A DNA stretch of 64,000 bases from Eledone cirrhosa (taxonomy: Eukaryota). The translations under genes and the position numbers were made by a program. Location of the stretch: positions 164,672,001-164,736,000 of the forward strand of contig OZ024740.1 in assembly GCA_964016885.1 (NCBI GenBank), read 5' to 3'. This document shows, piece after piece, positions 2,107-62,779 of the stretch. Numbering within the stretch: the stretch's first letter is position 1; each line of letters begins with the position of its first letter. Under the pieces are notes generated by a model, which did no database searches, had not been told where the DNA came from, and was given only the letters and a program-made list of their open reading frames with translations.

Positions 2107-2238
<132 letters not shown>

Positions 2239-2429
2239 GGTTTGAGGTTCACCACTGTATAGAGCTGGTCTATTCCGTATGGTCAATCGTAATGCAATAA
2301 TATAGAGAGTACTCAACGTAAAGCAGTTCAACCGTCTTTGTTTTTGTAGTTGGTGGTGCTATTACGGAGTTAAATATTATAATGAAATGACAGGAGGCTG
2401 GATTTGTGTAAATCCTTGAAAGGTTTATT

Positions 2430-2487
2430 ATACTATGATCATTTCAATGACCGGGTTCCGTATGAATCCGGTGATATCATCAGGTAT
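2430..2487 (-). ncRNA. Type I HHR (unit 1)
   Basis: rc: atac-CTGATGA-tatc-accgg...ccggt-catt-GAAA-TGATCA-TA-gtat-AATAAA. AUA site; palindromic helix III. Confidence 0.85.
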
Positions 2488-2894
2488 TCGAAATATAATA
2501 CGTGAATGTAATAGGTAAAATCCATGGGGCTGAAAATCGAGACCCGAGGGCGACCGCTATTCTGTTCCTTCAACCTCAGCCGGTCGCCCTGGAGTGACGT
2601 GGCTAAATTTTATAGTCGAATTGTGGTTAGATATATTCAGTCCCATGTCGCTGTTGATTATTACATTTTGAAGTGCTCAACATTTCAGGAGCGTTATTTA
2701 TTCAGGTTTGAGGTTCACACTGTATAGAGCTGGTCTATTCCGTATGGTCAATCGTAATGCAATAATATAGAGAGTACTCAACGTAAAGCAGTTCAAACGT
2801 CTTTGTTTTTGTAGTTGGTGGTGCTATTACGGAGTTAAATATTATAATGAAATGACAGGAGGCTGGATTTGTGTAAATCCTTGAAAGGTTTATT

Positions 2895-2952
2895 ATACTA
2901 TGATCATTTCAATGACCGGGTTCCGTATGAATCCGGTGATATCATCAGGTAT
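2895..2952 (-). ncRNA. Type I HHR (unit 2)
   Basis: Same motif, 465 nt from the first copy. Confidence 0.85.
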
Positions 2953-3489
2953 TCGAAATATAATACGTGAATGTAATAGGTAAAATCCATGGGGCTGAAA
3001 ATCGAGACCCGAGGGCGACCGCTATTCTGTTCCTTCAACCTCAGCCGGTCGCCCTGGAGTGACGTGGCTAAATTTTATAGTCGAATTGTGATTAGATATA
3101 TTCAGTCCCATGCCGCTGTTGATTATTACATTTTGAAGTAACTCTGTAATAGCACCACCAACTACAAAAACAAAGACGGTTGAACTGCTTTACGTTGAGT
3201 ACTCTCTATATTATTGCATTACGATTGACCATACGGAATAGACCAGCTCTATACAGTGGTGAACCTCAAACCTGAATAAATAACGCTCCTGAAATGTTGA
3301 GCACTTCAAAATGTAATAATCAACAGCGGCATGGGACTGAATATATCTAACCACAATTCGACTATAAAATTTAGCCACCTCACTCCAGGGCGACCGGCTG
3401 AGGTTGAAGGAACAGAATAGCGGTCGCCCTCGGGTCTCGATTTTCAGCCCCATGGATTTTACCTATTACATTCACGTATTATATTTCGA

Positions 3490-3547
3490 ATACCTGATGA
3501 TATCACCGGATTCATACGGAACCCGGTCATTGAAATGATCATAGTAT
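3490..3547 (+). ncRNA. Type I HHR (inverted unit)
   Basis: atac-CTGATGA(3494-3500)...GAAA(3532)-TGATC-ATA-gtat, with AATAAA at 3548. Confidence 0.85.
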
Positions 3548-3600
3548 AATAAACCTTTCAAGGATTTACACAAATCCAGCCTCCTGTCATTTCATTATAT

Positions 3601-3678
<78 letters not shown>

Positions 3679-5062: not shown

Positions 5063-5148
5063 ATTCTTCATATGCTTTATATACATCATAACATTTAAAA
5101 AAAAAAAGAATTGTCCTTTTCATTTTTTCAATAATGTTATCTTTTCAA

Positions 5149-5305
5149 TAATTGTTTCTACTTTTGGCACAAGGCCAGCAATTATTCCAGTGCATTACTG
5201 GTACTTTATTTTATCGACCCCGTAAGGATGAAAGGCAAAGTTAACCTCGGCGGGATTTGAACTCAGATCATAAAGGGAGGTAACTCTATGCTTCAAAGCA
5301 TGGCA
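5149..5305 (-). mobile_element. tRNA-derived SINE, partial
   Basis: rc contains the B-box GAGTTCAAATCCC, the core gcctttcatccttacggggtcgataaaataaagtaccag and the tail gccttgtgccaaaagtagaaacaatt. Confidence 0.85.
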
Positions 5306-5936: not shown

Positions 5937-8264
5937 ATGTAGCTGTCACTGTCATTATATGTCTACTGAGCAGTAATCTATTAGTAACGTCTATCCATAT
6001 TCCACGGCTAGAAAATCTAAAGCTAGTTTTAAAATCTCGGCGTTCGATTAATATTACGATATTCAAAGGGAGTTGTTCTTAGTTCATATAGATTTCAATT
6101 CGCATATATACACAGAGACACACACATACCACCCCCATATTATATATATATATTACTGGCATGTTAACCGTGATTGGTTTCAATACGTGGGGCAGGGGCA
6201 TATTTCTTTTCAATTTTTATATTTTAGCCAATACTAGATATATATTTATATATGTATCTGTGTGGTTTCCCACCTGTGCCTGTGCATGTCTATTTGTTTC
6301 TATGACTCTCACTAAAGATAGCGAACATGGAACGTACTTTTAGAATATGATCCTTTCTACACCCTTTTTGCGCATTTCTTCCTTAACAATCAATAAAAGT
6401 TTAATGGTGTATGAACGAACAAAATAAAAAATAAAACTTCCGTTAACATATTCAAAGGCAAAAAATATAGTAAAATAACGATTTTTAATTTAGGCACAGG
6501 TCCATAGATATCCGTAGAGTAACGCTCTATCCCAAAATGTCGCTGTTATATTCTCTATCGACATTGAAATGAGAAAAAAAGGGAAGTCATTTAAGGCAGA
6601 ATGACACCTTTTGATTGCTCTCCTTTTCTATTGATTCTGCTACGGATTAAATTATGAAACTATGTATGGCCAGATTGAAACAGAAAAATATTAGATCAGA
6701 AATATAAAATAAAATGTAGAAAAGTCAATGAGGAAGAATAAACTATGTAACGAAAGAAGAAATACATTAATGAAATAGAGAAAGAGGACGCACAAGAAAG
6801 AAATCCAAAGTCATAAACAGTGATATAATCAGGTCGGTTGGAGCAAAGATTGAAAAACAGAAAAATTGAAATAAACCAAATTATATAATGGTGGAAACAA
6901 ATTCAGAAAACTATAAGGAATTAATTTGAAGAAAATATTATGACATAAAAGAAAATGAGAATTAATTCAAAATAAATGAATTTCAAATTTACATGTCATA
7001 AAAGTAAAGGAAACCAAACAGGAATGGTAACGTACAAAAAGGAATATAAGAATAGACGAAGACTAATACTAATAAGTGGCGGAATACGTGGAAAAAGAGA
7101 GTGATGAATAAGGAATATGAACGTGAGATAGATGACGATGAGTGAAAGAATGAAAAAATTAAAATGAAAGAGAAAAAGAGAAAAAGGAAAATATATTGAA
7201 CGAATGAAAATGTAAGAGAAAAAAGAGAAAAAATTAAAATATATTGAAAAAAGTGAAAAAATAAAAATATTTTGAACGAATGAATTCTAAAGAAGAAGTT
7301 ACATATAAATAAAGAAAGCATTAAAACTATTATAGCGAAAAGAAGGATGAATTCAAAATAGAAATAGAAATAGTAAAATAATTCAGAGAGAAGGAAAAGG
7401 CAGAAGGAGAATAAAGGTAGGGAAAATAGGGGAAGAAAAAGAAGAAATAAAGGAATGAATAAAGGAGTCTGGAACTATTTCCAGATCTAAAGTAGTTTAG
7501 AGATTGGCGGAAGCTATCAGTTTTGTTTATGATGATTAAGCTGTCATTAGGTTAACTAGCGGCATAAAGTAACGGGAATTGGACCCGTTTCTTCCTCCTT
7601 CACTCATTACATACTTCCATCAGACATATATAGAAATATACAAATATACACACATACACATTCAGCTGTGTGCGTCTGTATCTGCACGCGTATACACACA
7701 CAGACATATATATATATATATACACTATAAATGTGCGTATGTAGCTATGTAGGCATGTAGCTACAAATGTGCGTATGTAGCTATGTATTTATCAAGGTAT
7801 GTGGATGTATGTATGTAATACATCCCACATCGATCATATTCAAACCACGTAGGACACATTCCCCGTACCTCCATCAATCCTGGATATATGTGTTACGATC
7901 ATTAAATCAAAATGAAACGGAGATGAGAGTATATATATGTGAGTGGTTGTGTGTAAGAAGGTGTACATGAGTGTGTATCTCTATATAATGGCCTTATCAA
8001 CATTGATGGAAATAAAAGTACAGATTATGTAACAGTGAAAATAGTGAAAAGAACAAAAAACAAAGGTGGCGGCAATGGTAGTGATAGTAGACATTGTGAA
8101 GCTTTTGGTAGTGAAAGAATCATAACGATATCAAGACGTTCAACAAAGTAGACAAATACATCGAGTTAGTCTGGACATTATTCTATGTTCTATACATGCA
8201 CATTTGATGAATTGTAGTGCACCTGAGCTCTGTACACGATGATTTCCATTATTACTATTATTAA

Positions 8265-8455
8265 GGGCGGTGGATTGGCAGTAATGGTAGAGGGTCGGAC
8301 GCCATGCTTTGACGCATAGAGTTACAGCCCTTGCCATTCTGAGTTCAAATCCTGCCGAGGTTAACTTTGCCTTTCATCCTTACGGGGTCGATAAAATAAA
8401 GTACCAGTAATGCACTGGGTAATTGCTGGCCTTGTGCCAAACATAGAAACAATTA
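8265..8455 (+). mobile_element. tRNA-derived SINE, full length
   Basis: Head ggcggtggattggcagtaatggtagag (A-box-like), B-box gagttcaaatcc, conserved core and (ATT)n tail. Confidence 0.9.
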
Positions 8456-8615
8456 TTACTATTATTAAAACATTTACATTAAATAATTTAAATGGATATA
8501 GAATGTGATTCACAGAGACACACAAGCACACATATGTACAATTATACGCTCCACTCACAAATACATGCATGCACGCGCGCACGTACACATACACGCACAC
8601 ACACACATACACACA

Positions 8616-9990: not shown

Positions 9991-10672
9991 AAAATAATAA
10001 GTTGATTTTCTAGAAGCATATGAGCAAATAGTTAAATAATTTAGTATGTAGATGGCTGAATAGGAATAAATAAAACAAAATAAAATCAAGTAAAATTTAA
10101 TATTTAAAAATAGATGATAAAATAGATAATATGGGAGGCTAACTTGTGTTATATGTAAGCATATTGCATACATACAAGCACACACAAGTATACGAAGATA
10201 TTTTAAAATATTTTACATAGAAATACATGAATAAATAAATCAATTAACACTTTAAAGAAAGGACTGGGGTGAAATGAGATAACATTTAGAGGGTAAGAAA
10301 ATGAGTAGATGGATAGATAAGTGTGTAAATTACATACACTAGGTGGGTAGGTGAGTGGATAAAATATGTACATATACCACAGGCGTGTGCAGACTTGTAG
10401 ACTTGTGCATGCACACACAAGCATAAGTGCATTCATACCTGCACGCGTACTAGTGTGCACACATATACATGCTTATTCAAATACTTACGTGCACATATAT
10501 ATATATACACGCACACATACACACACATACACATATATATATATATTTGAAGTAAGGTTGCTTGGATGCGCCCATAGGCGGTATGCCGGTTGAGCACTCT
10601 ATGCTCCTTTGGAGCAGAGTATGATAATATGGAAAACGAATAATCAGTGATGCACCGGAACACAATTTATTA

Positions 10673-10763
10673 GGTATTACAATTGTTTCTCCGGCGAACA
10701 GCTCGAGGTGCGGTCTGTTTGTGGATCGAACCTGACTCTGGATTCGCAAGTTCTTCAGATACG
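10673..10763 (-). ncRNA. Type I HHR with extended helix II (left arm)
   Basis: rc: gtat-CTGAAGA-[62 nt]-GAAAC-AATT-GTA-atac, then AATAAA. Confidence 0.8.
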
Positions 10764-10850
10764 TCTAGTGATTTCGAAGCAAATCCTCTTTCTGCTGGAC
10801 TCTTTCTGCTGGAATCCAACAGAAAGAGGATTTGCTTCGAAATCGCTAGA

Positions 10851-10941
10851 CGTATCTGAGGAACTTGCGAATCCAGTGTCAGGTTCGATCCACAAACAGA
10901 CCCCACCTCGAGCTGTTCGCCGGAGAAACAATTGTAATACG
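10851..10941 (+). ncRNA. Type I HHR with extended helix II (right arm)
   Basis: cgtat-CTGAGGA-acttGCGAAT...GTTCGCcgga-GAAAC-AATT-GTA-atacg; AATAAA at 10943. Confidence 0.8.
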
Positions 10942-10982
10942 TAATAAATTGTGTTCCGGTGCATCACTGATTATTCGTTTTC

Positions 10983-11083
<101 letters not shown>

Positions 11084-11406: not shown

Positions 11407-11609
11407 AATGAACGAAGTGTGGTAAGGAACCAGGTGGACCATAACGCACCAGAGTACTCGAATACTTTTGGTAGTAGAGTGGGTAATAGGAAAATGTTCA
11501 GGACCCCGACGGCAGAGTTCAAGCTGTTTCGACGGCTATTTCTGGACTAAATTTAGTTCAGAAATAGCCATCGAAACGGCTTGAGCCCTGCCGTCGGGGT
11601 CTTGAACAT

Positions 11610-11615
<6 letters not shown>
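11407..11615. mobile_element. Solo PLE terminus (family X) with fold-back
   Basis: Matches the outer end of the PLE at 19790-19935. Arms 11489-11550 and 11553-11614; within (TA)n. Confidence 0.85.
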
Positions 11616-11648
<33 letters not shown>

Positions 11649-12830: not shown

Positions 12831-12950
12831 TCGAAACGGGTTGAGCTCAGCCTTCGGGGTCCTACTTGTTCCTATTACCCACGCTACTACTCTAAGTATT
12901 GAGTACTTTGGTGTGTTATGGTCCATCTGGTTCATATGGTCCATCATATG
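12831..12950 (+). mobile_element. Family X PLE-terminus fragment
   Basis: tcgaaacgggttgagctcagccttcggggtcctac...gagtactttggtg, between TA runs. Confidence 0.8.
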
Positions 12951-16520: not shown

Positions 16521-16652
16521 AAAATGTCAGGACCCCGATGGCTGAACACCGGCTGTTTCGACAGTTAGATCCGAGTTCGTATTACTACCCAAAGTATCGA
16601 GTACTCTGGTGAGTTATGGTCCACCTGGTATCTGACCACACCCTCCCTGTTA
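16520..16652 (-). mobile_element. Family X PLE-terminus, diverged copy
   Basis: aggaccccgatggctga...gtttcgac followed by an inverted gagtactctggtg..atggtccacctgg. Confidence 0.7.
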
Positions 16653-18502: not shown

Positions 18503-18867
18503 CCATTCTGCTCTGATGATACAGTGGTCACAGCATTTGATAATTAAGTTTTGTAAATAGTTATAAATTTGTACATAGCATAAATAGGCTGTATAACAAC
18601 CGTGGAAACATTTGTAAGCACACAAAATAAATTACCTTTTCATGATGTCTACCTGTTATTATTCATTCTTTATATATATATAATAAACGTATGTGTTCCT
18701 ACATGTAATTAATACACACAGGATACAAGTATAGTCCGACCATATGCAAGTGTGGTTCAATGGCAAGTTAATAAATTAACAAGCCAGAACATATAAAATC
18801 AAAGGAAAGCAAATAAAGAAAAACATTTTAAATAAATTTTAAATTATTCACTGTCCTTACTATATGT

Positions 18868-18942
18868 GCCTTTACCGCGGTTTCAAATCCCAAACGAATA
18901 GATAATCCAGGCGGATTTCCATTGAGAAGGGGATTATCGTCA
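18868..18942 (-). ncRNA. Truncated HHR (inverted copy)
   Basis: rc: TGACGA-taatccc...gggattt-GAAAC-CGCG-GTA-aaggc. Lacks C3 and the 5' strand of helix I. Confidence 0.6.
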
Positions 18943-19049
18943 TACCAAAAACTGCTTTATCATTCATCTACTCTCATTCTGAAGCAGTTAGGAATGGCGC
19001 CAGTTTGAAATTTTTAACTCGGGAATTTTATATTCCCCGGGAGAGAAAT

Positions 19050-19130
19050 GCCTTCTGACGATAATCCCATTCTCAATGGAAATCCGCCTGGATTATCTAT
19101 TCGTTTGCGATTTGAAACCACGGTAAAGGG
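19050..19130 (+). ncRNA. Type I HHR (unit 1)
   Basis: gcctt-CTGACGA-taatcc...gattt-GAAAC-CACG-GTA-aagg. Confidence 0.8.
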
Positions 19131-19527
19131 ACATATAGTAAGTACAGTGAATTTTTTAAAATTTATTTAAAAATTTTTTCTTTATTTGTTTTCCCTTGAT
19201 TTTATATGTTCTGGCTTGTTATTTTATTAACTTGCTATTGAACCACACTGGTATATGGTCGGACTATATTTGTATCCCTGTGTGTATTAATTACATGTAG
19301 GAACAAATTATTATTATTCTCCCCAATGGTAGAGAAAACAATAGTCGTCTGAATGGCTGCTATTTTTAGCAGTAGAGGATTGACTTGTCCAGCGTGCTCT
19401 CGCCTTTGCACACGGTACCATACCAAAAACTGCTTTACAATTCATCTACTCTCATTCTGGGGCAGTTTGGAATGGCGACAGTTTGAAATTTCTAACTCAG
19501 GAATTTTATATTCTCCGGTAGAGAAAT

Positions 19528-19608
19528 GCCTTCTGACGATAATCCCCTTCTCAATGTAAGTCCGCCTGGATTATCTATTCGTTTGGGATTTGAAACCGCG
19601 GTAAAAGC
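19528..19608 (+). ncRNA. Type I HHR (unit 2)
   Basis: gcctt-CTGACGA-t-aatccc...gggatt-t-GAAAC-CGCG-GTA-aaagc. Palindromic helix III ACCGCGGT. Confidence 0.82.
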
Positions 19609-19789
19609 ACATATACTAAGTACAGTGAATTTAAAAAAATGTATTTAAACATTTTTTCTTTATTTGCTTTCCCTTGATTTTATATATATATATATATATA
19701 TACACATGTGTGTGTGGGGGTTTTTCAGCGTGTATCAGTGCCGGTGGGTGGATTTATACATTCAAACATATATATATATATATATATAT

Positions 19790-22700
19790 ATAACGAAGGA
19801 AATGTGGTAAGGAACCAGATGGACCATAACGCACCAAAGTATCAATACTTAGGGTAGTAGAGTGGGTAATAGGAAAGAGTAGGTCCCCGACGGCTGAGCT
19901 CAAGCCATTTCGACGGCTAATTCTGGACTAAATGAAAAGTTTTATCCTGGTATATGAATAGCCAAGCTTCTCAGGGGGTAATTCCATATATGGTAAAAGT
20001 GATTGTCACAAGGATTGGTCAAAAGTTTGTTGTTGAGACACATAATTCTATCATGGCAATTTGTGGGAAGGGGTAGCTGAACCTGCCAGTAGAAGAAGGA
20101 GGGAGAGGGGGTGGAGGAAACCCAGTCGTGCGTTGATAGTGCCAACTACAGCAGGGCAGGAGGTCAAGGAAGTATACTAGGGAGGGGGAGGGGGGGAGTC
20201 GAAACAATAATTAAAACAATATGGGGTAAATATATAGAAGAATACCAAGAATGTTAAAAAAACAATTAAATATAAAAAAAACAAAACACAATTTCTGGTT
20301 ACTATTCCCTAACGACAGCTATCAAGTCTCTCACTGGTACTGCTAGACTATAGAAAAGTTTACTAGGTGGGACGGAATTATAATGAGACTCTTTTAAGAG
20401 GTAGTAGTAATCAACCGAGTATATCTTACGGTGACGGGTCAACAAGTGTGTGTGTGTGGGGGGGGGGGGCAATATAATAAAGAAACTACCACGATAATAA
20501 TTCAGAGTCCCGAGACTAATACGAAATAATTGTTTCTACCCTAGGCACAAGGCCAGCAACCACCCAGTACAAAAAATAAACTAATACGAAATAATAATTC
20601 AGAATCCCGAAAAAGAATACTAATACTATCTCTAAGGGTGCCGCTACGATACAAAAATTCTAGTGCAAATTACATAAATGCTCGTACGAAGTATATGAAA
20701 AATTTGATACGGAAAATTAATTCAGAATCCCCAACACCTCCCACCCCTAAACCCCCCAAAAAAATTAATACTGATATACGAGAAATTAAAGCAAATATAC
20801 CACTAAGAAATGTAGAAAGGACGGAAAAGGGGCAGCCATCGGATAAGAAAGCAAGTATCCGGGGTCTATCACATCTGCTATAAAAAGCGGAGTTGGCCAA
20901 TTCTATCATAGAATAGGGCAAGAGGGTGGGGGTACTGAGGCTCCAAAGGACCGAGGGGCTGCCTCGGGTGGGCGAGAAAGGGAAAAGGACGACGACAAAG
21001 AAAGAGGACTGGGTGTAAAAACTAGGAAGGGATGGGGTGAAAAGGAAATATAGAGGAAGCGATAAAAAGATATAAAAGAAGATCTTACGTCTACCCTTGC
21101 AAGCAGGGGTTACCCATTACAAAGTTAGCAAGTGGGTTTTACAGCCCTTGTCTACCCCCCGGGTCATTATGGGGTTTGAGGGCGAGGTAAGTCCTACGCA
21201 ATCTGTGTTTGCATGCAGTTACCAGTTCGTCTTTCTTGTTTAGGAGTTGGTCCGTAGAAAACAGCATTTGTAAAGTTTCCTCCGAGCATAAATTGCACAG
21301 ACGGCGTCCTCCCGTGTAAGAGTTGTTCTCTGGACAGTAAGCTCCAAGTGAGATCATAGGTAATGTTGTTATCCTTCAGGTCCCAGATGTGGCCCGAAAG
21401 TGTGGTGGCGTGACGCCGGGCCGGGTTTCGGAAGGTATGTCTGTGTTGGTATAGCCGGGTCTTGAAGTCACATGCGGTTAATCCTATATAAGCTTTGTTG
21501 GAGGTGTCCGTCCTCACGTTGCACTGGTAGATCACATTACGATCTCTGCATCTGGATCCATCAGGACAGTTGCACTTCCTGGTCAGCTCTCCACTGCTAT
21601 TTAGGTTATTTCTTCCATAGGGGTTGCGTTTTTTGTTGTTAGAGGAGACGATGTTTTGTGCAAAGTTTGGTGTGGTGCTGTAGGAGAGTTTGATGGTATT
21701 TTTGTTAATTATATTGTGGTAGCGGTGTTGTAGTTGGAAGTGTTTTTCGATGAGCCTAAAGAAGATTTTCCCGTAAGGAGTTGTCACCTCGGCGTTGTGG
21801 GATGGATTGAACCATGTTACATTGCGTGAGCGGCGGTGTCGCCTGCTGGTTCCGCTAATGGAAGCTGGACAGTAGGATATTTCCTCCCGGAAACCACTCC
21901 GCTTGAGGGCCTGGTTGTAATAAGGCGCATGTTCCTCGAATATCCGCTCATTAGGGGACAAACGAGATATGCGGAGGGAGATGTTTTTAATCAGTTTATT
22001 GGTGATGTTCCTAGAATAGTTTGACCGGCGGTGGATGTAGTGCAGATCTTCTTTTATATCTTTTTATCGCTTCCTCTATATTTCCTTTTTCCCCCCATCC
22101 CTTCCTAGTCCTTCCACCCCAGTCCTCTTTCTTTGTCGTCGTCCTTTTCCCTTTCTCACCCACCCGAGGCAGCCCCTCGGTCCTTTGGAGCCTCAGTACC
22201 CCCACCCTCTTGCCCTATTCTATGATAGAATTGGCCGACTCCGCTTTTTATAGCAGATGTGATAGACCCCGGATACTTGCTTTCTTATCCGATGGCTGCC
22301 CCTTTTCCGTCCTTTCTACATTTCTTAGTGGTATCTTTGCTTTAATTTCTGGGGGGGGGGGGGGGGGGGTTAGAGGCGGGAGGTGTTGGGGATTCTGAAT
22401 TAATTTTCCGTATCAAATTTTTCATATACTTCGTACGAGCATTTATGTAGTTTGCACTAGAATTTTTGTATCGTAGCGGCACCCTTAGAGATAGTATTAG
22501 TATTATTTTTCGGGATTCTGAATTATTATTTCGTATTAGTTTATTTTTTGTACTGGGTGGTTGCTGGCCTTGTGCCTAGGGTTGAAACAATTATTTCGTA
22601 TTAGTCTCGGGACTCTGAATTATTATTTCGTGGTAGTTTCTTTAGTATTTTGGCCCTCCCCCACTTGTTGACCCGTCACCGTAAGATATACTCGGTTGAT

Positions 22701-23235
22701 TACTACTACCTCTTAAAAGAGTCTCATTATAATTCCGTCCCACCTAGTAAACTTTTCTATAGTCTAGCAGTACCAGTGAGAGACTTGATGGCTGCCGTTA
22801 GGGAATAGTAACCAGAAATTCTGTTTTGTTTTTTTTATATTTAATTGTTTTTTTAACATTCTTGGTATTCTTCTATATATTTACCCCATATTGTTTTACT
22901 TATTGTTTCGACTCCCCCCCCCTCCCTAGTATACTTCCTTGACCTCCTGCCCTGCTGTAGTTGGCACTATCAACGCACGACTGGGTTTCCTCCACCCCCT
23001 CTCCCTCCTTCTTCTACTGGCAGGTTCAGCTACCCCTTCTTTCCACAAATTGCCATGATAGAATTATATGTCTCAACAACAAACTTTTGACCAATCCTCG
23101 TGACAATCACTTTTACCATATATGGAAATACCCCCTGAGAAGCTCGGCTATTCATATACCACAATAACAATTTTCATTTAGTCCAGAATTAGCCGTCGAA
23201 ACGGCTTGAGATCAGCCGTCGGGGTCCTACTCATT

Positions 23236-23240
<5 letters not shown>
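19790..23240 (-). mobile_element. 5'-truncated Penelope-like element (Naiad-like) with inverted ~1.2-kb pseudo-LTR arms
   Basis: Arms 19868-21085 and 22044-23240 are reverse complements and enclose an RT-thumb/GIY-YIG coding remnant. Both ends lie in (TA)n. Confidence 0.9.
21139..22020 (-). pseudogene. PLE ORF remnant: RT C-terminus/linker plus GIY-YIG endonuclease (frameshifted)
   Basis: YNQALKRSGF, VTWFNP, TIKLSYS, CNC..C, NVIYQC..YIGLT..FKTR..QH, TLS..IWDLK; then CNLCSEE..LLNKKDEL..CKH in a second frame. Confidence 0.9.
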
Positions 23241-26520: not shown

Positions 26521-27053
26521 ACGCCATGCTTTGATGCATAGAGTTACGGCTCTTTCCAATCTGAGTTCAAATCCCGCCGGGGTTAACTTTGCCTTTCATC
26601 CTTATGGGGTCGATAAAATAAAGTACCAGTAATACACTGGGTAATTGCTGGCCTTGTGCCAAAAGTAGAAACAATTATTAGAAAATAATTGTTTCTACAT
26701 TTGGCACAAGGCCAGCAATTACTCAGTACATTACTGGTACTTTATTTTATCGACCCCGTAAGAATAAAAGGCAAAGTTAACCTCGGTGGGATTTAAACTC
26801 AGATCGTAAAGGGACGTAACTATGCGTCAAAGCATGGCGCCCGACTCTCCACCGATACTGCCAATAATGGAGGTAGATTAGCAGTGTCGGTAGAGAGTCG
26901 GGTGCCATGGTTTGACTCATAGAGTTACGGCCCTTTCCATTCTGAGTTCAAATCCCGCCGAGGTTAACTTTGCCTTGCATCCTTATGGGGTCGATAAAAT
27001 AAAGTACCAGTAATACACTGGAATTGCTGGCCATGTGCCAAAAGTAGAAACAA
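26521..27053. mobile_element. Three adjacent SINE copies in +/-/+ orientation
   Basis: 26521-26678 (+), 26686-26863 (-), 26869-27053 (+). Confidence 0.9.
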
Positions 27054-29013
27054 CTATAAATAATCGCTGTGGTTTAACAAAGATAAACTCTCTCGACATA
27101 CACATATACATATTTTCCATTTAATAATTGATGTAATCCAGTGATTAGCATTTTCTATTTTCTTCGCAGTCACAGATTCCTCGAAATTGTATGTTATCGG
27201 TTAGATATATCAGAGTACATTACCGAAACGGTTTTAAACGATGACAATCATAGCATGTCATATATGGCAGGTATATATGGCTACGTCATTCACAACTGTT
27301 TAAATCCGCACGAGGCAAATGTATTTTGCTATAAAGACTTATCGACCAAAGGCTTGTGAGTAAAATTTTATAGATGGAAATTGTGAAGATGCCCATTGGA
27401 TTGTCTGTAATTGTTCTTAATGCCTTTATCAGAATTCACTCTTAGGAAGCATTTAACACAGATTTCTGATTGCAGGTTATTTCAATTTTCTGATACTTTT
27501 AGAACAAATTCGGCTAATGATTGATGGTCACTACTTTCTTCCCACGATTAATTAAGACATTGAAAATCTTATATTCATATACAGTGGGCAACGGTAAAAT
27601 AAGGATTATTCCCTAGAATTAGTCCCATGCTTTTCCGCATTGTTTCAAAGCACATAGGAACAATAAAGACACAGGTATATATAATATTTAAGACAGGGTA
27701 CTTCACGAAATAAAAAAAAATCAGAGACATTGCGAGTGTATAGAGAAACATATATTACTTAATTCGTACATATATACAGAGAAATAAAGAGAGGGAAACA
27801 CGATGTGGTTTACATATGTACAAACGTCACAACATTACTGGATGCATCTCTATATACCTTAGCGCTGCTGATTGTGAGAGTTGAGCGTACCCATCGTAAA
27901 TATTTTATATCTTGATTTATTGCAATATATGGTCACCTGCACCCCTCCCCCTATTTATATATATATATATATATATATTTATAATGACTCTTTACAAAAA
28001 ATGACTCATCTCATGTTCGCTTCCTTAAGTAATTTTCCTTATACAAATTAACAAATTACTTTACATTTTGAGATTGAATTCCAAGAATGATTATGTTTTT
28101 TTCTGTTTCGAGAATATTTTCTTTACTGCTATCATTATTCCGATAATTTAATAATTTCATAATAACAAAAAGAAAATTACACTATTATTCAAATCGAGTT
28201 CAATTTATAAACATTTTCTCAATTTCTGGTAATATTTGATTATTTTCTAACAATTGTGATTAAACACAGATATTTGTAAAATTTCAATTATAGAACTGTT
28301 ATGTTGTTTTGGATATTTTCGAGTGTTTTATTATTAACGCAGAGATACGTTTTTCGTTTTCGTAAATATTATATCAAATTATTTTTCATCTGTCATTAAT
28401 CTTAGACAATTAATTTAATCACGACGTTGTGACATGTCTGAGGCTAAGTGTGAATGTGGCGCTTTATAACGTTTGTCCCTCTAGATAGGCAACATACTAG
28501 AAATGTGATTAAAAATTTTCTCAGCAACACATCTTTTTTGTTAAGAATTATTCAACGCTGGCCAGTTTATCGGTATTCGTTTCTTCCACTAACACAATCG
28601 AGTATTCATTGAATCTACACATGCATCCCCTTACAGGTACCCTCACAAACTTACACTGGCAAAAAAAAAAGAAAACTAATGATATTGCGACAAGGTAAAA
28701 AGAAGGTGAGACAGCAACTTAAATTATTACACACAAATATATTTTTATTCAACAATATATGAATGTATTTACGTAAATATGTTCAGAAAAATAGAGAGAT
28801 ATGTAGGTCGATACATAGATAGATAGATGAGCAATACTGTTATATATATATATATCACGAAACAGTAAAATAAATTCATATATATGTATGTGTGAAATGT
28901 TGTGTCTTTCGACATTCATGTGAATAAATATGTGTATGCTTATTCTTTCTTTAACGACAAATACACATATATATGTGCATGAATATGTACATATATACGT
29001 ATCTATCTATCAA

Positions 29014-31443: not shown

Positions 31444-31453
31444 CATATATCAA

Positions 31454-31641
31454 TAATTGTCTACTTTGGGCACAAGGCCAGCAATTATCTCAGTGTATTA
31501 TAGGTACTTTATTTTATTGACCCCGTAAGGATGAAAGGCAAAGTGAACCTCGGCGTGATGTGAACTCAGTCCGTAAAGAGACGCAACTGTGCTGAAAAGC
31601 ATGGCGTCCGACCCTCTACCGACACTGCCAATCCACCGCCC
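31454..31641 (-). mobile_element. tRNA-derived SINE, full length
   Basis: Tail, core and head (ctgccaatccaccgccc) all present. Confidence 0.9.
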
Positions 31642-32006: not shown

Positions 32007-33364
32007 ATGAAAAATAAAAGTTACGGGCGAAAGAGAGGAATATCCATCGTCAGTTGTCTGCTAGGAATCATAGGTATTTCTTCGTGTTAGAGACAAGATA
32101 ACTCAGCCTAGGGCGAACAAGAACTAAAATAAGTTATTGGGATAAAAAAAGGGGGGGGGGATATGTAAACAGACACGAAACGTGAAGCAACGTAAAGAGG
32201 GGAAAAATAGGAAAAATATCAAGTCAACAACTCATTTCAAACGTAAGAACTGGCGAGTTTGACGAGAGAGAAAAAGACACTTCTTCGCTGTAGCAGTGTT
32301 AGCGGGAGAAGAGGCTGCGTACAGTGGCGGACGAGAGAGGAAGTGAGCTAGCGGAGAGAGGGTGACTAGCAGAGAGGGAGTGACTAGCAGAGAGGGAGTG
32401 AGTGAAAGTAACGGGAAGCCAGAAACAGATAGTTATAGTGGCAGGCTAGCCGAGAGAAGATGACTAGCAGAGGGCGTGAGCGGAAGTAAGAGGGAGAAGG
32501 ATAGAGAAGGTGGAGAGAGGATAACAACAAGGGGAGAGACAAGAGAGGGGTCACGGCGAAGAAGGAAGCTTATATGAATAAAATGGCGAGCCGTGTGGTT
32601 GTATTTAAGTATAATGAAAAATAAAAGTTACGGGCGAAAGATATGGACGATGGATAAACCTCTCTTTCGCCCGTAACATTTATTTTTCATTATACATAAT
32701 TGCTGACTTTGACCTTTTATCAGAGGTTTTCTAACTATGACCATATCATATTAATTTCAAGTACACAACATCAATAAGTACATAATCTGTTTTTTTTTTC
32801 TTTTTTAAAACGGAAGTGTTTGATTTGGTGGAGTTTGGGCTGTTATTTCTAGCAGAATGTGACCAAATAGAAGGTTCCTGAATAGGTAGAGCTTCCATTG
32901 TGTTGATCCAGTGTTGATTTGAAGTTGTTCAAGATAGACCTTAGTCATATTTATCTGACAATCACAAAGATCATGAGTAAGTCAAAGGAAACCGCAAATA
33001 TATAGAAACCTTTCACACGTTCTGAATCTAAAGTTGATCAAATTATCAAGTGAGGGCGTAGTAGGAATTTTGTGTCTGTAATGCTGTAAATATATTTACA
33101 CACGTGTAGGATTCATAGTGATAATAACAGAGCGATTGTAACAGAAATAGCAGTGTTTGTAGTGTTAATAGAAGTGGTGAGAATGTTAATAGTAATTTTA
33201 TTATCGATAGTAGCATATTTAATATTATTAATAGTACGTTTAGTAATAACAGCATGCCTTTTAATTATAATAGCAGTATTATTAGTATTAATAGTAGCAT
33301 TATTAACATATTATTAATAGTCGCATTATTAACATATTATTAATAGTATCAATTATGATATTAA

Positions 33365-35155
33365 TAATTGTTCTACTTTTGGCCCAAGGCCAGCAAATAC
33401 CCAGTATATTACTGGTACTTTATTTTATCGAGCCCGTAAGGATGAAAGGCAAAGTTAACTTCGGCGGGATTTGAATTCAGTCCACAAAGGGCCGTAACTC
33501 TTTGCTGCAAAGCATGGCGTCCGACCCTCTATATGATACTGCCAATCCACTATTAATAATAGTAGTTAGAGTGTTAAAATATCTAGTATTTATAGTAAAA
33601 TGTGGCGTATTAGCTGAGTTATTATAAGGTCAGATAGAATGTTTTAAGGTACTCATTTTGGTTCTCTGCGCATTGAGTTCAAAACCTGCCGGGGCCAAAT
33701 TTTCCTTTCGTTATTTCGCAGTCGATGAAAAAGTACAGTAACGAGGGAACAAAACTTCCTCTATATCTCTTTCTTACTTTATCTCTCTACTTCTCAGGAA
33801 GAAATAGGTTGTGCTCAGGCTTGGAGAGGAGATTGGCTCCGTGAGGATATAAATGCCCGAGACACGTCGGCTATCACTCTTATGTGCATAGTTTTATGTA
33901 TAGTATTTAAAGCAGTATGTATAGAATAAGTAGTTGTAGTATTAATAGTAATATGTGTGGTACTGATAGTAATAATATTAGTTTTGATAATTCTATCTAA
34001 TATAGGAACAAGGCCAACACTTTGAGTGAGGAAAAAGTCGTTTATATCAACCTGAGTGCTTAATTGGTACTTTACTATAAAGACGCCGGTTGAAAAGCAA
34101 ATTTAACTTCGGCGAAATTTGAAAACCGTAGCTAAATACCGCAAAGCATTTTTTCCCACGCTCTATCAATACTGCCAATCTACCACTATCAGTTGTAGTA
34201 TTAATAATGGTTTTTGATTTTAGGTAGAGGAGGAGGGGAAAGTTGATTTAATCGAATCAGTTACTGTTACTTTATTTTGCCGATTCGTAAATTTGAAAGG
34301 TAAAGCTAACCTCGGAGGGATTTGAACACAGAAGTTAGAATACCGTAACTAAATACCACAAAGTATTTTGGCAGACACTCTACCGATTCTGCTAATCCAC
34401 CACCTTAAATAATTGTTTCTACTTTTGGCACAAGGTCTGCAATTACTCCAGTGTATTACTGGTACTTTATTTCATCGACTCCGTAAGAATGAAAAGCAAA
34501 GTTAACCACGGCGGTATTTGAACTCAGATCATAAAGGGCCGTAACTCTATGCTACAAAGCATGGCGTCCGACCCTCTACCGTTACTGTCATACTCCCACC
34601 TTAAATAATGTTTTCTGATTTAGACACAAGGAGAACAATTTTGGGAGAAGGGGAAAGGCGATTAAATCGAACCAGTGTGTTACTGGTGCTTTATTTATCA
34701 ATTAAAGTCAAAGCTAATCTTGGTGGGATTTAAACCCAGAAGGTAAAGGGCCGTAACTCTATATTGGAAAGCATGTTCTACCACATTCTATCGCGATGTC
34801 GTGGTGTTGCTGGGGTAATAAAGATGCTGCTGCTGCTGCGTACCTCAATAATAATAATGGTTTCTTATATAGGCACAAGGCCAGCAATTATCCAGTGCAT
34901 TACTGGTACTTTATTTTATCGACCTCGTAAGGATGAAAGGCAAAGTCTTTCTTATATAGGCACAAGGCCAGCCATTTTGGGGGGAGGGGAAAGTCGTTTA
35001 AATCGACCCCAGTGTATTACTGGCACTTTATTTTATCGACCCTGTAAGTATGAAAGGCAAAGTTAATCTCAACGGGATTTGAACTCAGAACGTAAAGGGC
35101 CATAACTCCCTGCTGCAAACAATGGTGTCTGACCCTCTACAATATTGCCAATCCA
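33365..35155 (-). mobile_element. Cluster of about 7 SINE copies, mostly on the minus strand
   Basis: Copies near 33365, 34005, 34210, 34409, 34610, 34860 and 34950, plus a diverged plus-strand copy near 33600-33740. Confidence 0.85.
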
Positions 35156-37035: not shown

Positions 37036-37640
<605 letters not shown>

Positions 37641-37839: not shown

Positions 37840-38091
37840 CTCCTTTGTTCTGTCCTGAGGATTTGGCGTAGGACAGAACAAACGAGAGGCACAAAACAAA
37901 AAAAAGAATCCCCAGTCACTGAAGAGGTCACAGAATGTGTGACGAAAGAACTTTGACAATATATGAACAACCGTCCGGTTGTGGAACCAACCAACCAACC
38001 GGAAATTTATAAATTTAAAATTTATAAATTAAAAAAAAAAAAAAAATGTTTATATATATATATATATATAATAAACAACATAAGGTAATTA

Positions 38092-38152
38092 TTTCATTTA
38101 CCAGTGGTTTCTTGAAAGCAAACAAATTTTGCTTTCAATCATCAGAATGAAA
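38092..38152 (-). ncRNA. Type I HHR (left arm)
   Basis: Reverse complement of 38217-38277. Confidence 0.88.
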
Positions 38153-38216
38153 AAATCCTGCTGTATTTATTGACATAGGTTTTTAAAATCCAATGTCAAT
38201 AAATACACCAGGATGT

Positions 38217-38277
38217 TTTCATTCTGATGATTGAAAGCAAAATTTGTTTGCTTTCAAGAAACCACTGGTAAATGAAA
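38217..38277 (+). ncRNA. Type I HHR (right arm)
   Basis: tttcatt-CTGATGA-ttgaaagcaaa(atttg)tttgctttcaa-GAAAC-CACTG-GTA-aatgaaa. Helix I 7 bp, helix II 11 bp. Confidence 0.9.
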
Positions 38278-39023
38278 TAATTACCTTATATTGTTTATTA
38301 CATAACTATTAAGTTCTCTCTCTATATATATAACAAATAAAGATTCAGCGAGAATCGCATCTTCTCGCGGGCAGGAAAAGCGAAGCGAAACGAAAAAGTC
38401 AGAAATGATACTGGCAAAGTGGTCAATAGTTAAAAACCAGAGCTAAACAATGTGTTAAGAAGCCTTACAAAACTGAAAAGGGGGTCAAGAAAGCATTAAC
38501 CACCTAAGCCAAAAACCAAATCAAGCTAAACAAGTCAATATACACACACACACATATATATATATACATATATATATTATATATGTATAATATATATATA
38601 TATATTGTGTATATATGTATATATATGTGTGTGTGGTGTGAGTGTGTGTGTGTGTGTGTGAGCTTGCGTGTGTGATTATAATATCCACGATGACGATGAT
38701 ACGGGGAATTTTCCTGATAAGTGACAGTAGAGGCGTAAGGTGAGATCAGGTCTGAAAAAATAACTATATCATATATCAGATAAATTGTAAGATAAAGATA
38801 TCTCTCGATGACTAATTGTATTGAACCCACAATTTTGAGGTTCACTTATTAAACCTGTAAAATATTCACTTTATTTTTCTCTATCTCTCTCGCAGTTTCT
38901 TTCTCACACACACAAAAAAAAAAATATATATATATATACATTAATATTTATACATACATATATATATATATACATATGTGTGTATGTGTGTGTATCACAC
39001 ACACACACACACACACAACACAC

Positions 39024-39115
<92 letters not shown>

Positions 39116-39121
<6 letters not shown>

Positions 39122-39598
39122 TAAACGGAATAGAAAATGCTGACAAATTGTTCACAGTTGAAAAATGGTTTAATTAGGAATAAAAGAGTATTAGTGATTG
39201 TATGGGTTAGTATTCAGTTGTGGTTTTAAGTTTTTACCGGTTGCGCATTTCTAAATGCTTTTCAAAAATAATTTTGAGATAGAGTGTCCGTGCTGTTTGC
39301 TCTGATCAGAGCAAACAGCACGGGCACTCTATCTCAAAATTATTTTTGAAAAGCATTTAGAAATCAGAGCAAACAGCACGGACACTCTATCTCAAAATTA
39401 TTTTTGAAAAGCATTTAGAAATGCGCAACCGGTAATAACTTAAAAAATTAAAACCACAACTGAATACTAACCCATACAATCACTAATACTCTTTTATTCC
39501 TAATTAAACCATTTTTCAACTGTGAACAATTTGTCAGCATTTTCTATTCCGTTTACCAATATATAATAACTTGTGTGTTACACCTCTATTCTTTTAAC
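39116..39598. mobile_element. Fold-back element with an internal ~59-bp tandem duplication
   Basis: Turn at ttgctctgatcagagcaa (~39304); the tcagagcaaacagcacgg block occurs twice. Confidence 0.85.
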
Positions 39599-40382
39599 TA
39601 TATATATTCAATTGAAGGATATTTGGTTGATTGAAAATCTGCCGAATTTTTCTTAACAGTTGTACATCATTCCACGGTTGTTGTTCATCCAGAGTTTTAG
39701 TATAATACATAAAAAAGACGGTTTCATTTATACATTCCTATTTATTATTTTGTTATACGTATTTCAAAGACCTAAGGCAGTTTTATAACAATTACCCTAA
39801 GTGTTCTCTTCAGACAAAAATGCAAACGAGATGTAAAGTTCCGGTCATATGTGTTATTCCCATCACCGACTAGTAAGCATATGTCCGAATTTCTCAAGTA
39901 GCAGTTGTTATATGTGCGGGAGATAGATATTCGAATTGGCGTTGCTGCTTGTGAACTGGCGATGGTATCAATTCACCAGATTGGTCACTTGGTTCATAGG
40001 AAGGCATGTATGAACTGTTAGTCCATGTTTTTATTTTTATTCTAGATTTGATTCACTTAGATACGAATTCTAGTTTTAGATATTTCTACTTTGATACTGA
40101 TTCACCGTGTAAGATATTATTTGTGCCCCTATTTTAAGTATGATTTCCTGGTTTGGTATATCCCATTATTATAATAAAACACTATAATTTAATTAGAAGT
40201 TTGGGTTTGTGTTCAGGAGTTTGATATTTCAAAACTTTCCTATTTTTCAAGAAAAAATACATTTAAAAAAAATTTATCAGTTCATATAATTAAATCAACA
40301 GAGTATATATTTATTTTATTATACAAGCTTATCAAAAGCAAACAAGTAAAAACAAATAACACTTATAAGCAACTTATACACG

Positions 40383-51916: not shown

Positions 51917-52096
51917 TTGGCAGTATTGGTAGAGGGTCGGACGCCATGCTTTCCAGCATAGTTACGTCCCTTTACGATCTGAGTTCAAATCCCGCCGAGG
52001 TTGACTTTGCCTTTCATCCTTACGGGGTCGATAAAATAAAGTACCAGTAATGCACTGGATAATTGCTGGCCTTGTGCCTAAAGTAGAAACAATTAT
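51917..52096 (+). mobile_element. tRNA-derived SINE
   Basis: Head, B-box, core and tail present. Confidence 0.9.
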
Positions 52097-58903: not shown

Positions 58904-59016
<113 letters not shown>

Positions 59017-59148
59017 GTAAGCAAAAAAGTGTTGGTAAAATACAGTACTTCAGTATGCGGATAGGGAGCACTCAACAAAGATATCGGTTCCGGAGTTATA
59101 ATGGTGACGAAACATAAGTCAATTGTATGAACTCATTATCCTTTATTT

Positions 59149-59204
59149 ACCGCTATATATATTTCGATGATAGCCATTGTATGGCTATGAGCTCATCAGG
59201 CAGT
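59149..59204 (-). ncRNA. Type I HHR (related to 50641)
   Basis: rc: actgc-CTGATGA-gctc-atagccat(aca)atggctat-catc-GAAAT-ATAT-ATA-gcggt-aAATAAA. Confidence 0.88.
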
Positions 59205-59869
59205 TAGTAAGTTCTTAGATATGCCAGCTCTGGGTTTTTGGTGTTGATGGTTTAAGAGCCTTGGGACATATGAGCTTGTTAGGAATAATTTAATGTTGTC
59301 AGCAGGAATAAACTTAATTCTCATTGGTCAGTTTGTAGATGCTAGTAGGACTGGTATTTGACCTCAAAGAGGTAGGTGGTGTTGTAAAGTTCAAACCGTC
59401 CGGCAAGATGACAATAGTTCCATTGACTGATTTTCACAAAAAGCATTCCTGGTCAGATATATATTCAATTGAGGTGTATAGTATGAAATTCGATACTACA
59501 GGGCATTCTTAAATTGAGGAATTTATGTGGGGTGGTGCTACTGAAAATTATGGTTAGAGTCAAATACTTAGAAAATTTATATATGAAAAGACTTATGTTG
59601 GTTGACTTGTACATGCACTCACACCCATCCCCTAGACACACAAATCCATACAGATGCGTATATATATGTATGTACACACAAGTGCTTATATATATACAAA
59701 AGAGGCTCCCATATTCAAGTATATGGCAGACACAAAATGAGGTGGGTGTTATTTTTAAAGAAAAGGGTGTTTACAAAAAATTAAAAATTAAAAAGGAAAA
59801 ATTATTGTTTAGACTAGACAAAAGTAGGGTGTGATATATATCTTCACAGCAATAGCTTAGTGGCTTTGG

Positions 59870-61780
59870 AGCATAGGCGATTCCATTAGTACAGACCCAC
59901 CCACCCATACTTGTATACCTCTGGATGCGTGTGTATGTCTATATACACATGTGCATTCATACAATAGAGCATACACAAATATACTCTTAAGCATACACTT
60001 GAACATTTTTCAAATGCAACCTGGGGTATTATTATTTCGTTGTGTTCACATAAGTGCGTACATTCACCTAATCCCGGTATACACACACAGCGCACGGTTG
60101 AGGGCACGCATTCATGCGTATATTAGGATAATCGCTCGTCTTGTGTGGGTCACTCCGGTGTGGGGTGGGGGTGGTGGTTCATCAGGTTAAAAAAACGTGG
60201 TTTTGCTGACTCCTAACCAGTAGAGGATGTGGTGGACAATCCACTTTGGGGACCACAAACTATGCGTGGGTGTTGTTGCCCATTGGTCATTGGTACGGGG
60301 TGTAGGGAGCCCTACAGGGGGGGGGGCGCCAATTTCATGTATCTCGCCAGTTCATTAGAGCTTGCTCAGTATGTGAGGAGCTACGGGAGTGGGCCTATGG
60401 GGGCGGGGTGTGTGAAAAAGTACGGGGCGGTGCTAGCCTATTATAGGGGTGCCGAAATTACTACTAAGGGGTGGTCGGAAGGGGTAGGGGAGAAAAAGGG
60501 CGCTGTGGGAGGCCGTATCCGGGGTTTATCCATATAGCTTGAGGAAAGTTCCCGTCCTAAGGTACCTGCAGGTGCCGAATAATTCTGTTTAATAGCTTGG
60601 TTCCGCGATGAAGTATCTCGAGTGTCTCACTAAGACAGAGGTTGCAAATACCAGACACACTTCTGTGTGGGGGAACCTTTCTAACCACAGGACCAGACCA
60701 AAGAGTGCGGGGTCCCTTCAAGTTTGAGCTTCCAGATCAATTCAGAAAGGGCCGTACATTTCCTCTTTTCTACTCTGTTAAAGGAGTGGCGATGGTTATA
60801 CCACCTATCTTTGAAGCTCATCGCCGTGGATCCTATGTAGTGGTGCTCCGAGTTAGGGTTTGTGACCCTGCACCTGTAGACTACGTTTTTCGTCATGCAT
60901 TCATTACTAAGGGGGCATAGTGATGGTTTTCTGCAATTGCATGACTTTTTAAGCCACAGCACATGTACCGTGGGGTTACCATCAGGTGGAGTTGGCTGTG
61001 TAGCCCCGGCATTCAGCACAGGTTCGTTGTATTGCGCTGTGATAGTTGGGCCTGTCCGGGGTCTGGTGTGTCCCGTGTGCTGGTTACTTTGGGTGGCGCC
61101 GGGGTTTACGGTGGTAATAGAGGCAGTGAGCCTACTCCTATTTATGCCGGCTATGTGATGGGCTATGGAACGTGTGGTTGAGTAGGATAGTTTCACCGTG
61201 TGCCTGTTGAATATTTTATGATACCCCAAGGAAACATTTATCCAGTACTCTAAAGAATGTTCTAGCCAGGCTGCTATGTAGACCCACCGAGTACGGGGGG
61301 TTATACCATGCGACTTTCCTGGTCTTATTCCTACGGGGTAGTTGGGTGTCCGCCGTGGTCCATCGCGGGGTGGTGTACAGCTCAGGTCGAGCTCGGTTGA
61401 TGTTACTCAGGTGTGCAGAGCGGGTACCATTCGTTGTTCGGTCACTATCAAGAGGGATATATGGGCCCACCGTGGGGCTATGAACCTGCGCGGTGTGGCC
61501 TCCCTGCTCAATGAGGGTTCGTCGGACGGTGGGGCATGGGAAGGGGTGCCTATGCTCCGCATTACAGTGGTCTTCAGTGATGTCGGTATTAGACCGGTGG
61601 GGTATGCGGGACCTTCTACCGAGGGTGGTGGCAGTTAGGGGTCTGGGAGTATTACTACTGGTCACCGTGATATTAGGTGGGCGACTCATGCCCCTGAGGG
61701 TATTGGCTCGGGGCATCCTTGGGTCATCTCGATCATGTCCCTTAGGGTTATAGCTGATCCTATGGCTGTGGGACGCCTTG
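59870..61780 (-). mobile_element. Penelope-like element remnant (approximate limits)
   Basis: GC-richer block around the GIY-YIG remnant; ends are not sharply defined. Confidence 0.6.
60560..61340 (-). pseudogene. Second Naiad-like PLE ORF remnant (linker plus GIY-YIG), frameshifted
   Basis: VAWYNPPYS, IFNRHTVKLSYS, CNCRKPSLCPL..C, NVVYRC..YIGST..FKDRW.NH, TALSELIWKLK; then CNLCLSE..LLN..ELFGTCRY. Confidence 0.88.
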
Positions 61781-62779
61781 GCTAGCGCTGAGTTATAATA
61801 ATCAGCATTACTATTGAAACGTTAGTGGTGTACATTCTGTTGCAAGCATTTAAATCACGAACATTATAGGAGGATAACTTGATATCTTTCCTCTCTGCTT
61901 TCATTAACAACAGTTCAAGAGTTGTAGTTTCTCTACTTCCACCAGATTCGAAGTTCCCCCAAATCGTCATGATAGATTTGTTTCCTCATTTGACTAAATT
62001 GTATGGACTAAACAATTCTGTTATTTTAACAAATTGGCTGCCTAACTATGTCGACGTGAGTGTTATGTGAACTCAGGAAAGCCGGAGTAAAACAGCGAGA
62101 TTTAGATATGATCATTCTATTTGTCTGTCTGCTGTCTTAAAATTGCTGTGTTAGCGAGAAAAATAATGAAAAGGAAAGAAGGCACTAAAAGAATAATAAG
62201 GGAATACAAGAGAGACACAAAAATACTAATAGAAAAATTAAAAAACGGAACAATAAATGCATAATAAGAGAATAGAGTTAGTAGGAATAAAGCAAGGAAT
62301 ATACAGCAGGAAGAAAGAAATTGTTGAGGAGAAAAAACAAGAAATATTGATGAATGAATAAATGAATAAGAATCATTAAAGAAACAATATAAAGTAAAAG
62401 CACGAAAAATGATGAATAAATGTAAAATTAAATGGAACAAATAATAAACTAGAAGCAGAAAAGTGTAAGAAAAATGTATAAAAGATAGCGAGACAAAAAA
62501 AGGAAAATGAATGAAGGAACGAGAAAATGTAAATAATTGGATTTTCTATAAACGACATTAACAACAACAAAAGCAACATCAACATTTATAATTGCAACAA
62601 TAATAAGACGATGTTGCCAACAACAACATGAGGGACAGCTAAAAAAAAAAAATCAGAACACAAAAAACGAGTGACAATTACAAAATAACTGCAGCTATAA
62701 AATATGTAGTAATGTATATGTACGAAACACAGGGAAATCGCAAAGTAAGAAAAGCTGCAAATGACTGAATATGTATATA

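Follow-up and report, generated by a model that had tools for sequence, protein, structure and literature searches.

An aged, retrozyme-like hammerhead insertion with a 478-nt unit in Eledone cirrhosa DNA, probably derived from a Hydra-clade PLE

In a stretch of 64,000 nt of Eledone cirrhosa DNA (contig OZ024740.1, positions 164,672,001 to 164,736,000; hereafter the window), the segment 18691-19685 contains two plus-strand type I hammerheads spaced exactly 478 nt apart and, ahead of them, an inverted partial copy of the same sequence. We confirmed that this arrangement is real and had been correctly described in a first-pass annotation. The segment is in our judgement probably an aged genomic copy of a small non-autonomous derivative of a Hydra-clade Penelope-like element (PLE), with a non-LTR retrozyme-type unit of 478 nt. 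Judged from its sequence, it would best be filed as a PLE-derived, retrozyme-like insertion of a known kind. The coordinates of all features are collected in Table 1.

Table 1. Features of the insertion and of the two coding PLEs in the window (signed numbers are positions relative to the hammerhead cut)
Feature	Position	Strand	Remarks
Left (TA)n target tract	18671..18682	.	seen in the sequence
Inverted, 5'-truncated copy	18691..18942	-	-69 to +183 (perhaps +190) relative to the hammerhead cut
Truncated hammerhead of the inverted copy	18867..18942	-	from the alignment; without C3, U4 and the 5' strand of helix I
Copy A, complete unit of 478 nt	18941..19418	+	overlaps the inverted copy by 2 nt at the junction (18941-18942)
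Type I hammerhead A	19049..19131	+	predicted cut after GUA at 19125
Predicted cut-to-cut monomer, 478 nt	19126..19603	+	
Stretch occurring once only, 110 nt	19309..19418	+	starts with an AT-rich run at the end of the inverted copy; possible head-to-tail junction
Copy B, partial, 267 nt	19419..19685	+	ends +77 to +82 past its cut, with a short TA-like overlap into (TA)n
Type I hammerhead B	19527..19609	+	predicted cut after GUA at 19603
Right (TA)n target tract	19680..19702	.	seen in the sequence
Broken coding Hydra-like PLE	19793..23240	-	RT tail, linker and GIY-YIG at 21194-22063; sequence unrelated to the insertion
Broken coding Hydra-like PLE	59016..61821	-	CxCX5C linker; coding part 60681-61821; unrelated to the insertion

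The CUGACGA cores lie at 19055 and 19533 on the plus strand, each followed by GAAA and then GUA, with H17 at 19125 and 19603. Helix I starts at 19049 in hammerhead A and at 19527 in hammerhead B, so that the positions first given for the two ribozymes, 19050 and 19528, were right within 1 nt and 478 nt apart. The tandem itself was recovered as a gapless direct repeat of 18941-19207 and 19419-19685 with 243 of 267 positions identical (91.0%), and the inverted partial copy ahead of it as a match of 18691-18942 to 19056-19308 (92.9% over 253 nt). From 18941 to 19685 the tandem thus measures 745/478 = 1.56 units. TRF, run with settings slightly different from those of Li, Clavereau and Pollet 2026 (bioRxiv 10.64898/2026.07.22.740005), reported nothing at period 478, and reported the other tandem discussed here, at 2235-3603 (element 1), with a period of 465 and 2.0 copies. 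Two full units in the TRF-based sense of Li 2026 are thus not present at 18691-19685; yet one whole monomer is flanked by two ribozymes. Both outer ends of the segment merge into (TA)n, and its 3' ends are unequal, lying at +77 to +82 in copy B and at +181 to +190 in the inverted copy. The family has one locus within the window, no similarity of the segment to the rest of the window was detectable, and genome searches returned 0 matches in bacterial or archaeal genomes and 0 in phages.

Both hammerheads follow one design: six pairs in helix I, six in helix II over a U.U mismatch and around an inner stem of 11 pairs, and two in helix III, which close a palindromic loop. The U.U mismatch at the base of helix II is formed by the last nucleotide of the core and the U preceding GAA. 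In hammerhead A 5 of 6 pairs are present in helix I and 5 of 6 in helix II, and the palindrome of helix III is broken by one change; hammerhead B has 5/6 and 6/6 pairs and an intact palindrome. The cores of both are intact, which gives complete cores in two consecutive units. The hammerhead of the inverted copy carries the majority base at every column that it covers and is incomplete as a ribozyme. The ribozymes were called with our own type I hammerhead descriptor and by folding, not from Rfam. The descriptor matched 17 times in the window, compared with 0.05 times on average (maximum 1) in 100 block-wise dinucleotide shuffles, from which we concluded that the hammerheads are not due to chance. 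Rfam at its gathering threshold found no hammerhead over the window, nor did it find one at E<=10 over 18600-19800, where its 10 matches were all to miRNA models on the TA repeat.

The predicted monomer is non-coding and has 36% GC, below 50%. Its longest open reading frame, 68 aa at 19353 with a CxxC motif, stops in copy A and matches none of four PLE proteins; the best tblastn match of these four proteins on the element had an E value of 0.5. The RT, the CxCX5C linker and the GIY-YIG reading frame of an autonomous Hydra-clade PLE are absent from 18691-19685, and remnants of linker and nuclease were found only in neighbouring elements. The first-pass annotation had named the pLTR of a coding PLE as the alternative that would undo the retrozyme reading. 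For the adjacent coding PLE this was rejected, there being no DNA similarity between the two; a version with joined PLE ends is taken up below. Nor did we detect homology to the 12 other hammerhead ends in the window, apart from one match of 24 nt (E 9e-5) in an AT-rich tract.

Non-LTR retrozymes consist of short tandem units that carry type I hammerheads and are expressed as circles of ~170-400 nt (Cervera and de la Pena 2020, PMC7229834), and Li, Clavereau and Pollet 2026 describe them as non-autonomous PLE derivatives. The insertion resembles them in being a short non-coding tandem with GC below 50%, a type I hammerhead in each repeat, a structured monomer and coding PLEs in its vicinity. 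It differs in comprising 1.56 units and an inverted arm instead of an array, in the decay of its copies, and in the long insert of its helix II, with no canonical contact between loops 1 and 2 seen. Its 478 nt are above the ~150-450 nt of cloned retrozymes and inside the 51-972 bp given for predicted families. Known here from DNA sequence, it agrees with the sequence definition of the class in all but the rule of two full units. The retrozyme proposal of the first-pass annotation thus stands for the non-coding unit, the hammerhead in each repeat and the structured monomer; what weakened it is that the layout is not specific to retrozymes, that the copy is decayed, and that a join of PLE ends is a serious rival reading. 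Among individual retrozymes, HHR_Amex2 of the axolotl (PMC7229834) likewise has a U.U mismatch at the foot of helix II and, in helix III, two pairs capped by a tetraloop, but its helix II is canonical and short, it has tens of thousands of copies, and its circles have been demonstrated.

The flanks and the ribozyme type point to the Hydra clade of PLEs, which is defined by the CxCX5C linker (PMC8557442). By our hand count of File S2 of that study the U.U at the base of helix II occurs in 14 of 25 families, and in its File S1 26 of 27 Hydra-clade families are marked as inserting into (TA)n, the entry for Penelope-2_NV being blank. Hand arithmetic on the six novel Hydra families of Craig et al. 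2021 (PMC8557442) places their ends 35-114 nt after the cut. Hydra-clade PLEs, including Hydra-1_Obim of Octopus bimaculoides and Penelope-13_HM with its inverted 5' copy, thus share with the insertion the (TA)n target, a partial tandem with an inverted copy, a hammerhead 35-114 nt before the 3' end and, in many families, the U.U helix II and the palindromic helix III. They differ from it in having the RT and GIY-YIG reading frames and in size, the distance from ribozyme to ribozyme being 478 nt here and ~2-3 kb in them. The span of helix II, 52 nt, is longer in the insertion than in any of the Hydra-clade rows covered in the supplement. Two short motifs of the ribozyme occurred in no Hydra sequence within the supplement files of PMC8557442 that were covered; one of them matched once, in an unrelated sequence.

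At 18691-19685 we found what is expected of a PLE-mobilised insertion, namely (TA)n at both ends, a partial tandem with an adjacent inverted 5'-truncated copy and unequal 3' ends, and a hammerhead near the 3' end with a palindromic helix III (compare File S2, PMC8557442). The 3' end of copy B, at +77 to +82, lies inside the +35 to +114 of the six novel Hydra families and near the initiation sites at +85 to +92 implied for anole Poseidon; the difference between the 3' ends of copy B and of the inverted copy is longer than the 30-40 nt tail given for PLE insertions in PMC8557442. A candidate driver is nearby, since the window contains two broken coding Hydra-like PLEs. The protein of Poseidon from Anolis carolinensis cuts AT-rich DNA and extends both nicked strands, starting inside the RNA downstream of the hammerhead and using uncleaved RNA as the template (Frangieh et al. 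2024, PMC11167929). Two-strand extension of this type would account for the layout of the insertion, which is similar in its AT-rich target and, as proposed below, in the extension of both strands, the starts downstream of the hammerhead and the uncleaved template. In Poseidon, initiation is described as proceeding without target homology and at sites 30-40 nt apart, whereas the ends of the insertion are ~105 nt apart and have short TA-like overlaps.

In the cycle that we propose, a Hydra-type RT/GIY-YIG protein, presumably supplied in trans, would have bound an RNA of several units, either as transcribed or after its hammerheads had cleaved as dimers and a host ligase had closed the product into a circle. 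Dimer cleavage enters this cycle by inference. The protein would nick the (TA)n tract on both strands; one nick would prime ~+80 after the ribozyme cut and copy 745 nt (1.56 units), and the other would prime at ~+185 and copy ~250 nt in the opposite orientation, two-strand priming being suggested by the layout. The two cDNA ends may then have joined at the 2-nt overlap (18941-18942), after which the three copies would have mutated independently. Since each of the three copies runs across a cut site, the template would have been uncleaved or re-ligated.

Element 1 has a 465-nt unit in two full units, its copies are 98.9-99.3% identical, and its ribozyme has the same U.U type. The first-pass annotation had seen no similarity between the two elements; this held, the best local match being 18 nt long (E 0.32), and common ancestry was therefore rejected. 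The same annotation had taken the matching inverted-plus-tandem layout as a sign of a shared architecture. The layout is indeed shared, but it is a generic signature of PLE insertions and not specific to retrozymes. Because it is found also on a coding neighbour and on short hammerhead ends, it indicates the same enzyme and not a special class of element. The inverted arm of element 1 starts at ~+65 and ends at +60 from the cut, which is one unit minus ~5 nt, as if the enzyme had gone once round a circle. It is conceivable, if still the less likely case, that both elements belong to a family of circular-RNA retrozymes of roughly 470 nt that parasitise Hydra-clade PLEs, and that their insertions record two-strand priming from a circular template. 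If true, this would be genomic evidence for a PLE reverse transcriptase copying ribozyme-made circles, which has so far only been hypothesised. Element 1 is a better candidate for the bench than 18691-19685.

The main rival of a non-autonomous 478-nt unit is an unlikely but serious one, in which two 5'-truncated 3' ends of a coding Hydra-type PLE were joined head to tail by a template jump, with an inverted end added. Copy A would then stop at ~+185, the site of the inverted copy, and copy B would start at ~-288; the spacing of 478 nt would be accidental, and neither monomer nor circle would ever have existed. Truncation, a partial tandem and an inverted 5' copy are typical of PLE insertions (PMC8557442), and short hammerhead 3' ends in (TA)n abound in the window. 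The end of the inverted copy falls at an AT-rich run, 19307-19319, and no second copy within the window spans this point. The coincidence is predicted also by overlap-guided priming on a continuous unit, given that all four outer ends of element 1 and of the insertion lie at TA-like words, and the alignment of copy A continues beyond this point at the cost of one substitution and a short gap. Joined ends would moreover require two different start sites (+80 and +185) in one event, and no match to a parental 3' UTR was found in the window. In element 1, of similar layout and size, the repeat boundary is crossed by both the direct and the inverted arm. The lack of a coding remnant in the 288 nt is not decisive, because a 3' UTR can be long, that of the PLE at 60681 being apparently ~1.4 kb. 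This joined-ends version is what survives of the earlier suggestion that the segment consists of PLE ends.

The preferred reading, an aged PLE-derived unit, was examined further through the differences between its copies. The three copies are mutually 90-93% identical (7-10% divergence). Of the 152 columns common to all three, 20 vary, the odd base being in A five times, in B nine times and in the inverted copy six times. This is the pattern of one event followed by independent drift of ~4% per copy. Among 25 ribozyme pairs none was changed on both sides, four were broken in one copy and one became G.U; a further change is the one that breaks the helix III palindrome of A. Compensatory changes between copies were not found, and each plus copy has one helix I mismatch. 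The divergence of 7-10%, together with pair-breaking changes in both ribozymes, makes a circle from this very locus doubtful, and we regard the copy at 18691-19685 as probably inactive.

Folding gave a modest signal of self-pairing for the monomer. The isolated ribozymes had minimum free energies of -14.4 and -13.6 kcal/mol, under the -5 cut-off of Li 2026, and were no more stable than their shuffles (z +0.6 each). The monomer 19126-19603 was 64% paired, with z -3.0 as a circle (0 of 40 shuffles as low) and z -2.1 as a linear molecule. Its minus strand also beat the shuffles (z -2.4), so that part of the monomer z-score reflects hairpin content that is neutral to the strand. We then set the columns covered three ways to their majority state, bearing in mind that a majority of three copies is a weak ancestor. 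The circular fold reached z -5.4, and changing the five odd bases of A to the majority lowered the circular energy from -114.2 to -125.5 kcal/mol, a gain of ~11 that was matched by 0 of 60 sets of five random base changes. In the majority ribozyme helices I and II were formed with pair probabilities of 0.68-1.0. An alternative pairing that might sequester the core had been suspected by eye and was discarded, helices I and II being formed instead in the majority fold. Metazoan hammerheads are described as able to act as dimers by virtue of a palindromic helix III (PMC4209133), and in the majority state the dimer fold was preferred by 9 kcal/mol, at a penalty of 7.1 against 16.2 kcal/mol for the two-monomer fold.

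These results bear on the improbable alternative that the locus itself is an active retrozyme, whose transcript would be cleaved at both sites and ligated into a 478-nt circle with its junction after GUA. The two plus-strand hammerheads retain intact cores and 5/6 helix I pairs each, and in a dimer of A and B 7 of 8 helix III positions can still pair, with 28 of 32 pairs overall; an axolotl ribozyme based on U.U does cleave, and better as a dimer (PMC7229834). Against this, the dimer-fold penalty of the locus as it stands was 21.5 kcal/mol compared with 7.1 in the majority state (two-monomer fold 22.2), and its helix I probabilities were at most 0.02 in A and 0.00-0.60 in B. The energy penalty predicts activity poorly, as the young element 1 scores 17.7 kcal/mol in its dimer fold despite 99% identity. 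An intact core is no sign of selection either, since by our own estimate about two core hits are expected at this divergence. Moreover, eight of nine predicted Xenopus dimers were uncleaved in vitro (bioRxiv 10.64898/2026.07.22.740005), and PLE ribozymes are reported to cleave poorly or only with protein (PMC4209133, PMC11167929). Finally, a local duplication and inversion of one hammerhead-bearing PLE end at the DNA level after insertion, by slippage or repair at microsatellites, would suit a repeat-rich region with 104 TA runs and the satellite-like amplification proposed for PLE ends (bioRxiv 10.64898/2026.07.22.740005), but is very improbable, because the similar divergence of all three copies suits one event, both outer ends lie in (TA)n, and the three-part layout recurs in the unrelated element 1.

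The aged PLE-derived unit that we favour adds one decayed example to a described class and is tied by ribozyme type and target to one PLE clade. Within the open literature covered, a search on octopus hammerhead ribozymes gave no retrozyme paper among the matches listed, and a search on non-autonomous Penelope elements with inverted copies and a microsatellite found nothing. As the 2026 preprint (bioRxiv 10.64898/2026.07.22.740005) states a focus on vertebrates, an invertebrate Hydra-clade case may be undescribed. Unit-length arms recurring across loci would raise the importance of the finding, since they would provide a test of circular templates in PLE reverse transcription and also of what the hammerheads of PLEs are for.

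The window as a whole is microsatellite-rich, animal-like DNA. For 15 of 17 examined cut sites a microsatellite was found within 260 nt downstream against a baseline of 25%, a count in which inverted pairs enter twice and are not independent; the two sites without a nearby microsatellite are internal tandem copies. The two coding PLEs (21194-22063 and 60681-61821) match each other (E 3e-20) as well as a single database protein, P0001, to which tblastn gave E 5e-37 and 1e-25. The Pfam match to GIY-YIG was weak (E 0.007) and fell short of the cut-off, and by eye both resemble the protein of Hydra-1_Obim. In O. vulgaris, recently active Penelope families are described (PMC13282606).

The coding PLE 19793-23240 lies 107 nt from the insertion, is accompanied by an inverted copy of itself (93% over 1224 columns) and is bordered by (TA)n on both sides. 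It carries a tail of ~75 nt on one side and has short relatives at 11410-11617, 12832-12933, 16583-16641 and 37040-37636. Its 3' end shows a hammerhead-like fold in both arms (helix I, GAAA, a long helix III and GUC) whose first core is non-canonical. In the PLE at 59016-61821 long low-complexity inserts lie within the reading frame, and there are apparently ~1.4 kb from its end to a hammerhead. This hammerhead, at 59199, and a (TA)n ~1.4 kb downstream of the coding part presumably mark the 3' end of the same PLE, the continuity of the two parts being our inference.

A further hammerhead candidate was noted on the plus strand at 18506-18670, with its core at 18513, a cut at 18616 and a helix II region of 85 nt, which exceeds the length limit of the stricter descriptor scan. 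It ends in the left (TA)n tract of the insertion itself, making this a cluster of PLE-type ends. Perfect or near-perfect inverted repeats in (TA)n were observed at 10530-10990, 38070-38320, 39113-39600 and 37040-37636, the first two with hammerheads on both arms; such MITE-like short inverted repeats in (TA)n are probably paired PLE 3' ends. By eye, the hammerheads at 2483, 2948, 3494, 31748, 50690, 58770 and 59199, which belong to several unrelated families, share a C.C mismatch as the fourth position of helix II, possibly a conserved structural feature. A repeat of 160-190 nt with more than 10 copies, among them 5147-5304, 8253-8465, 26521-27063, 31452-31636, 33355-33564, 34408-34590 and 51917-52101, is SINE-like and may resemble an octopus SINE.
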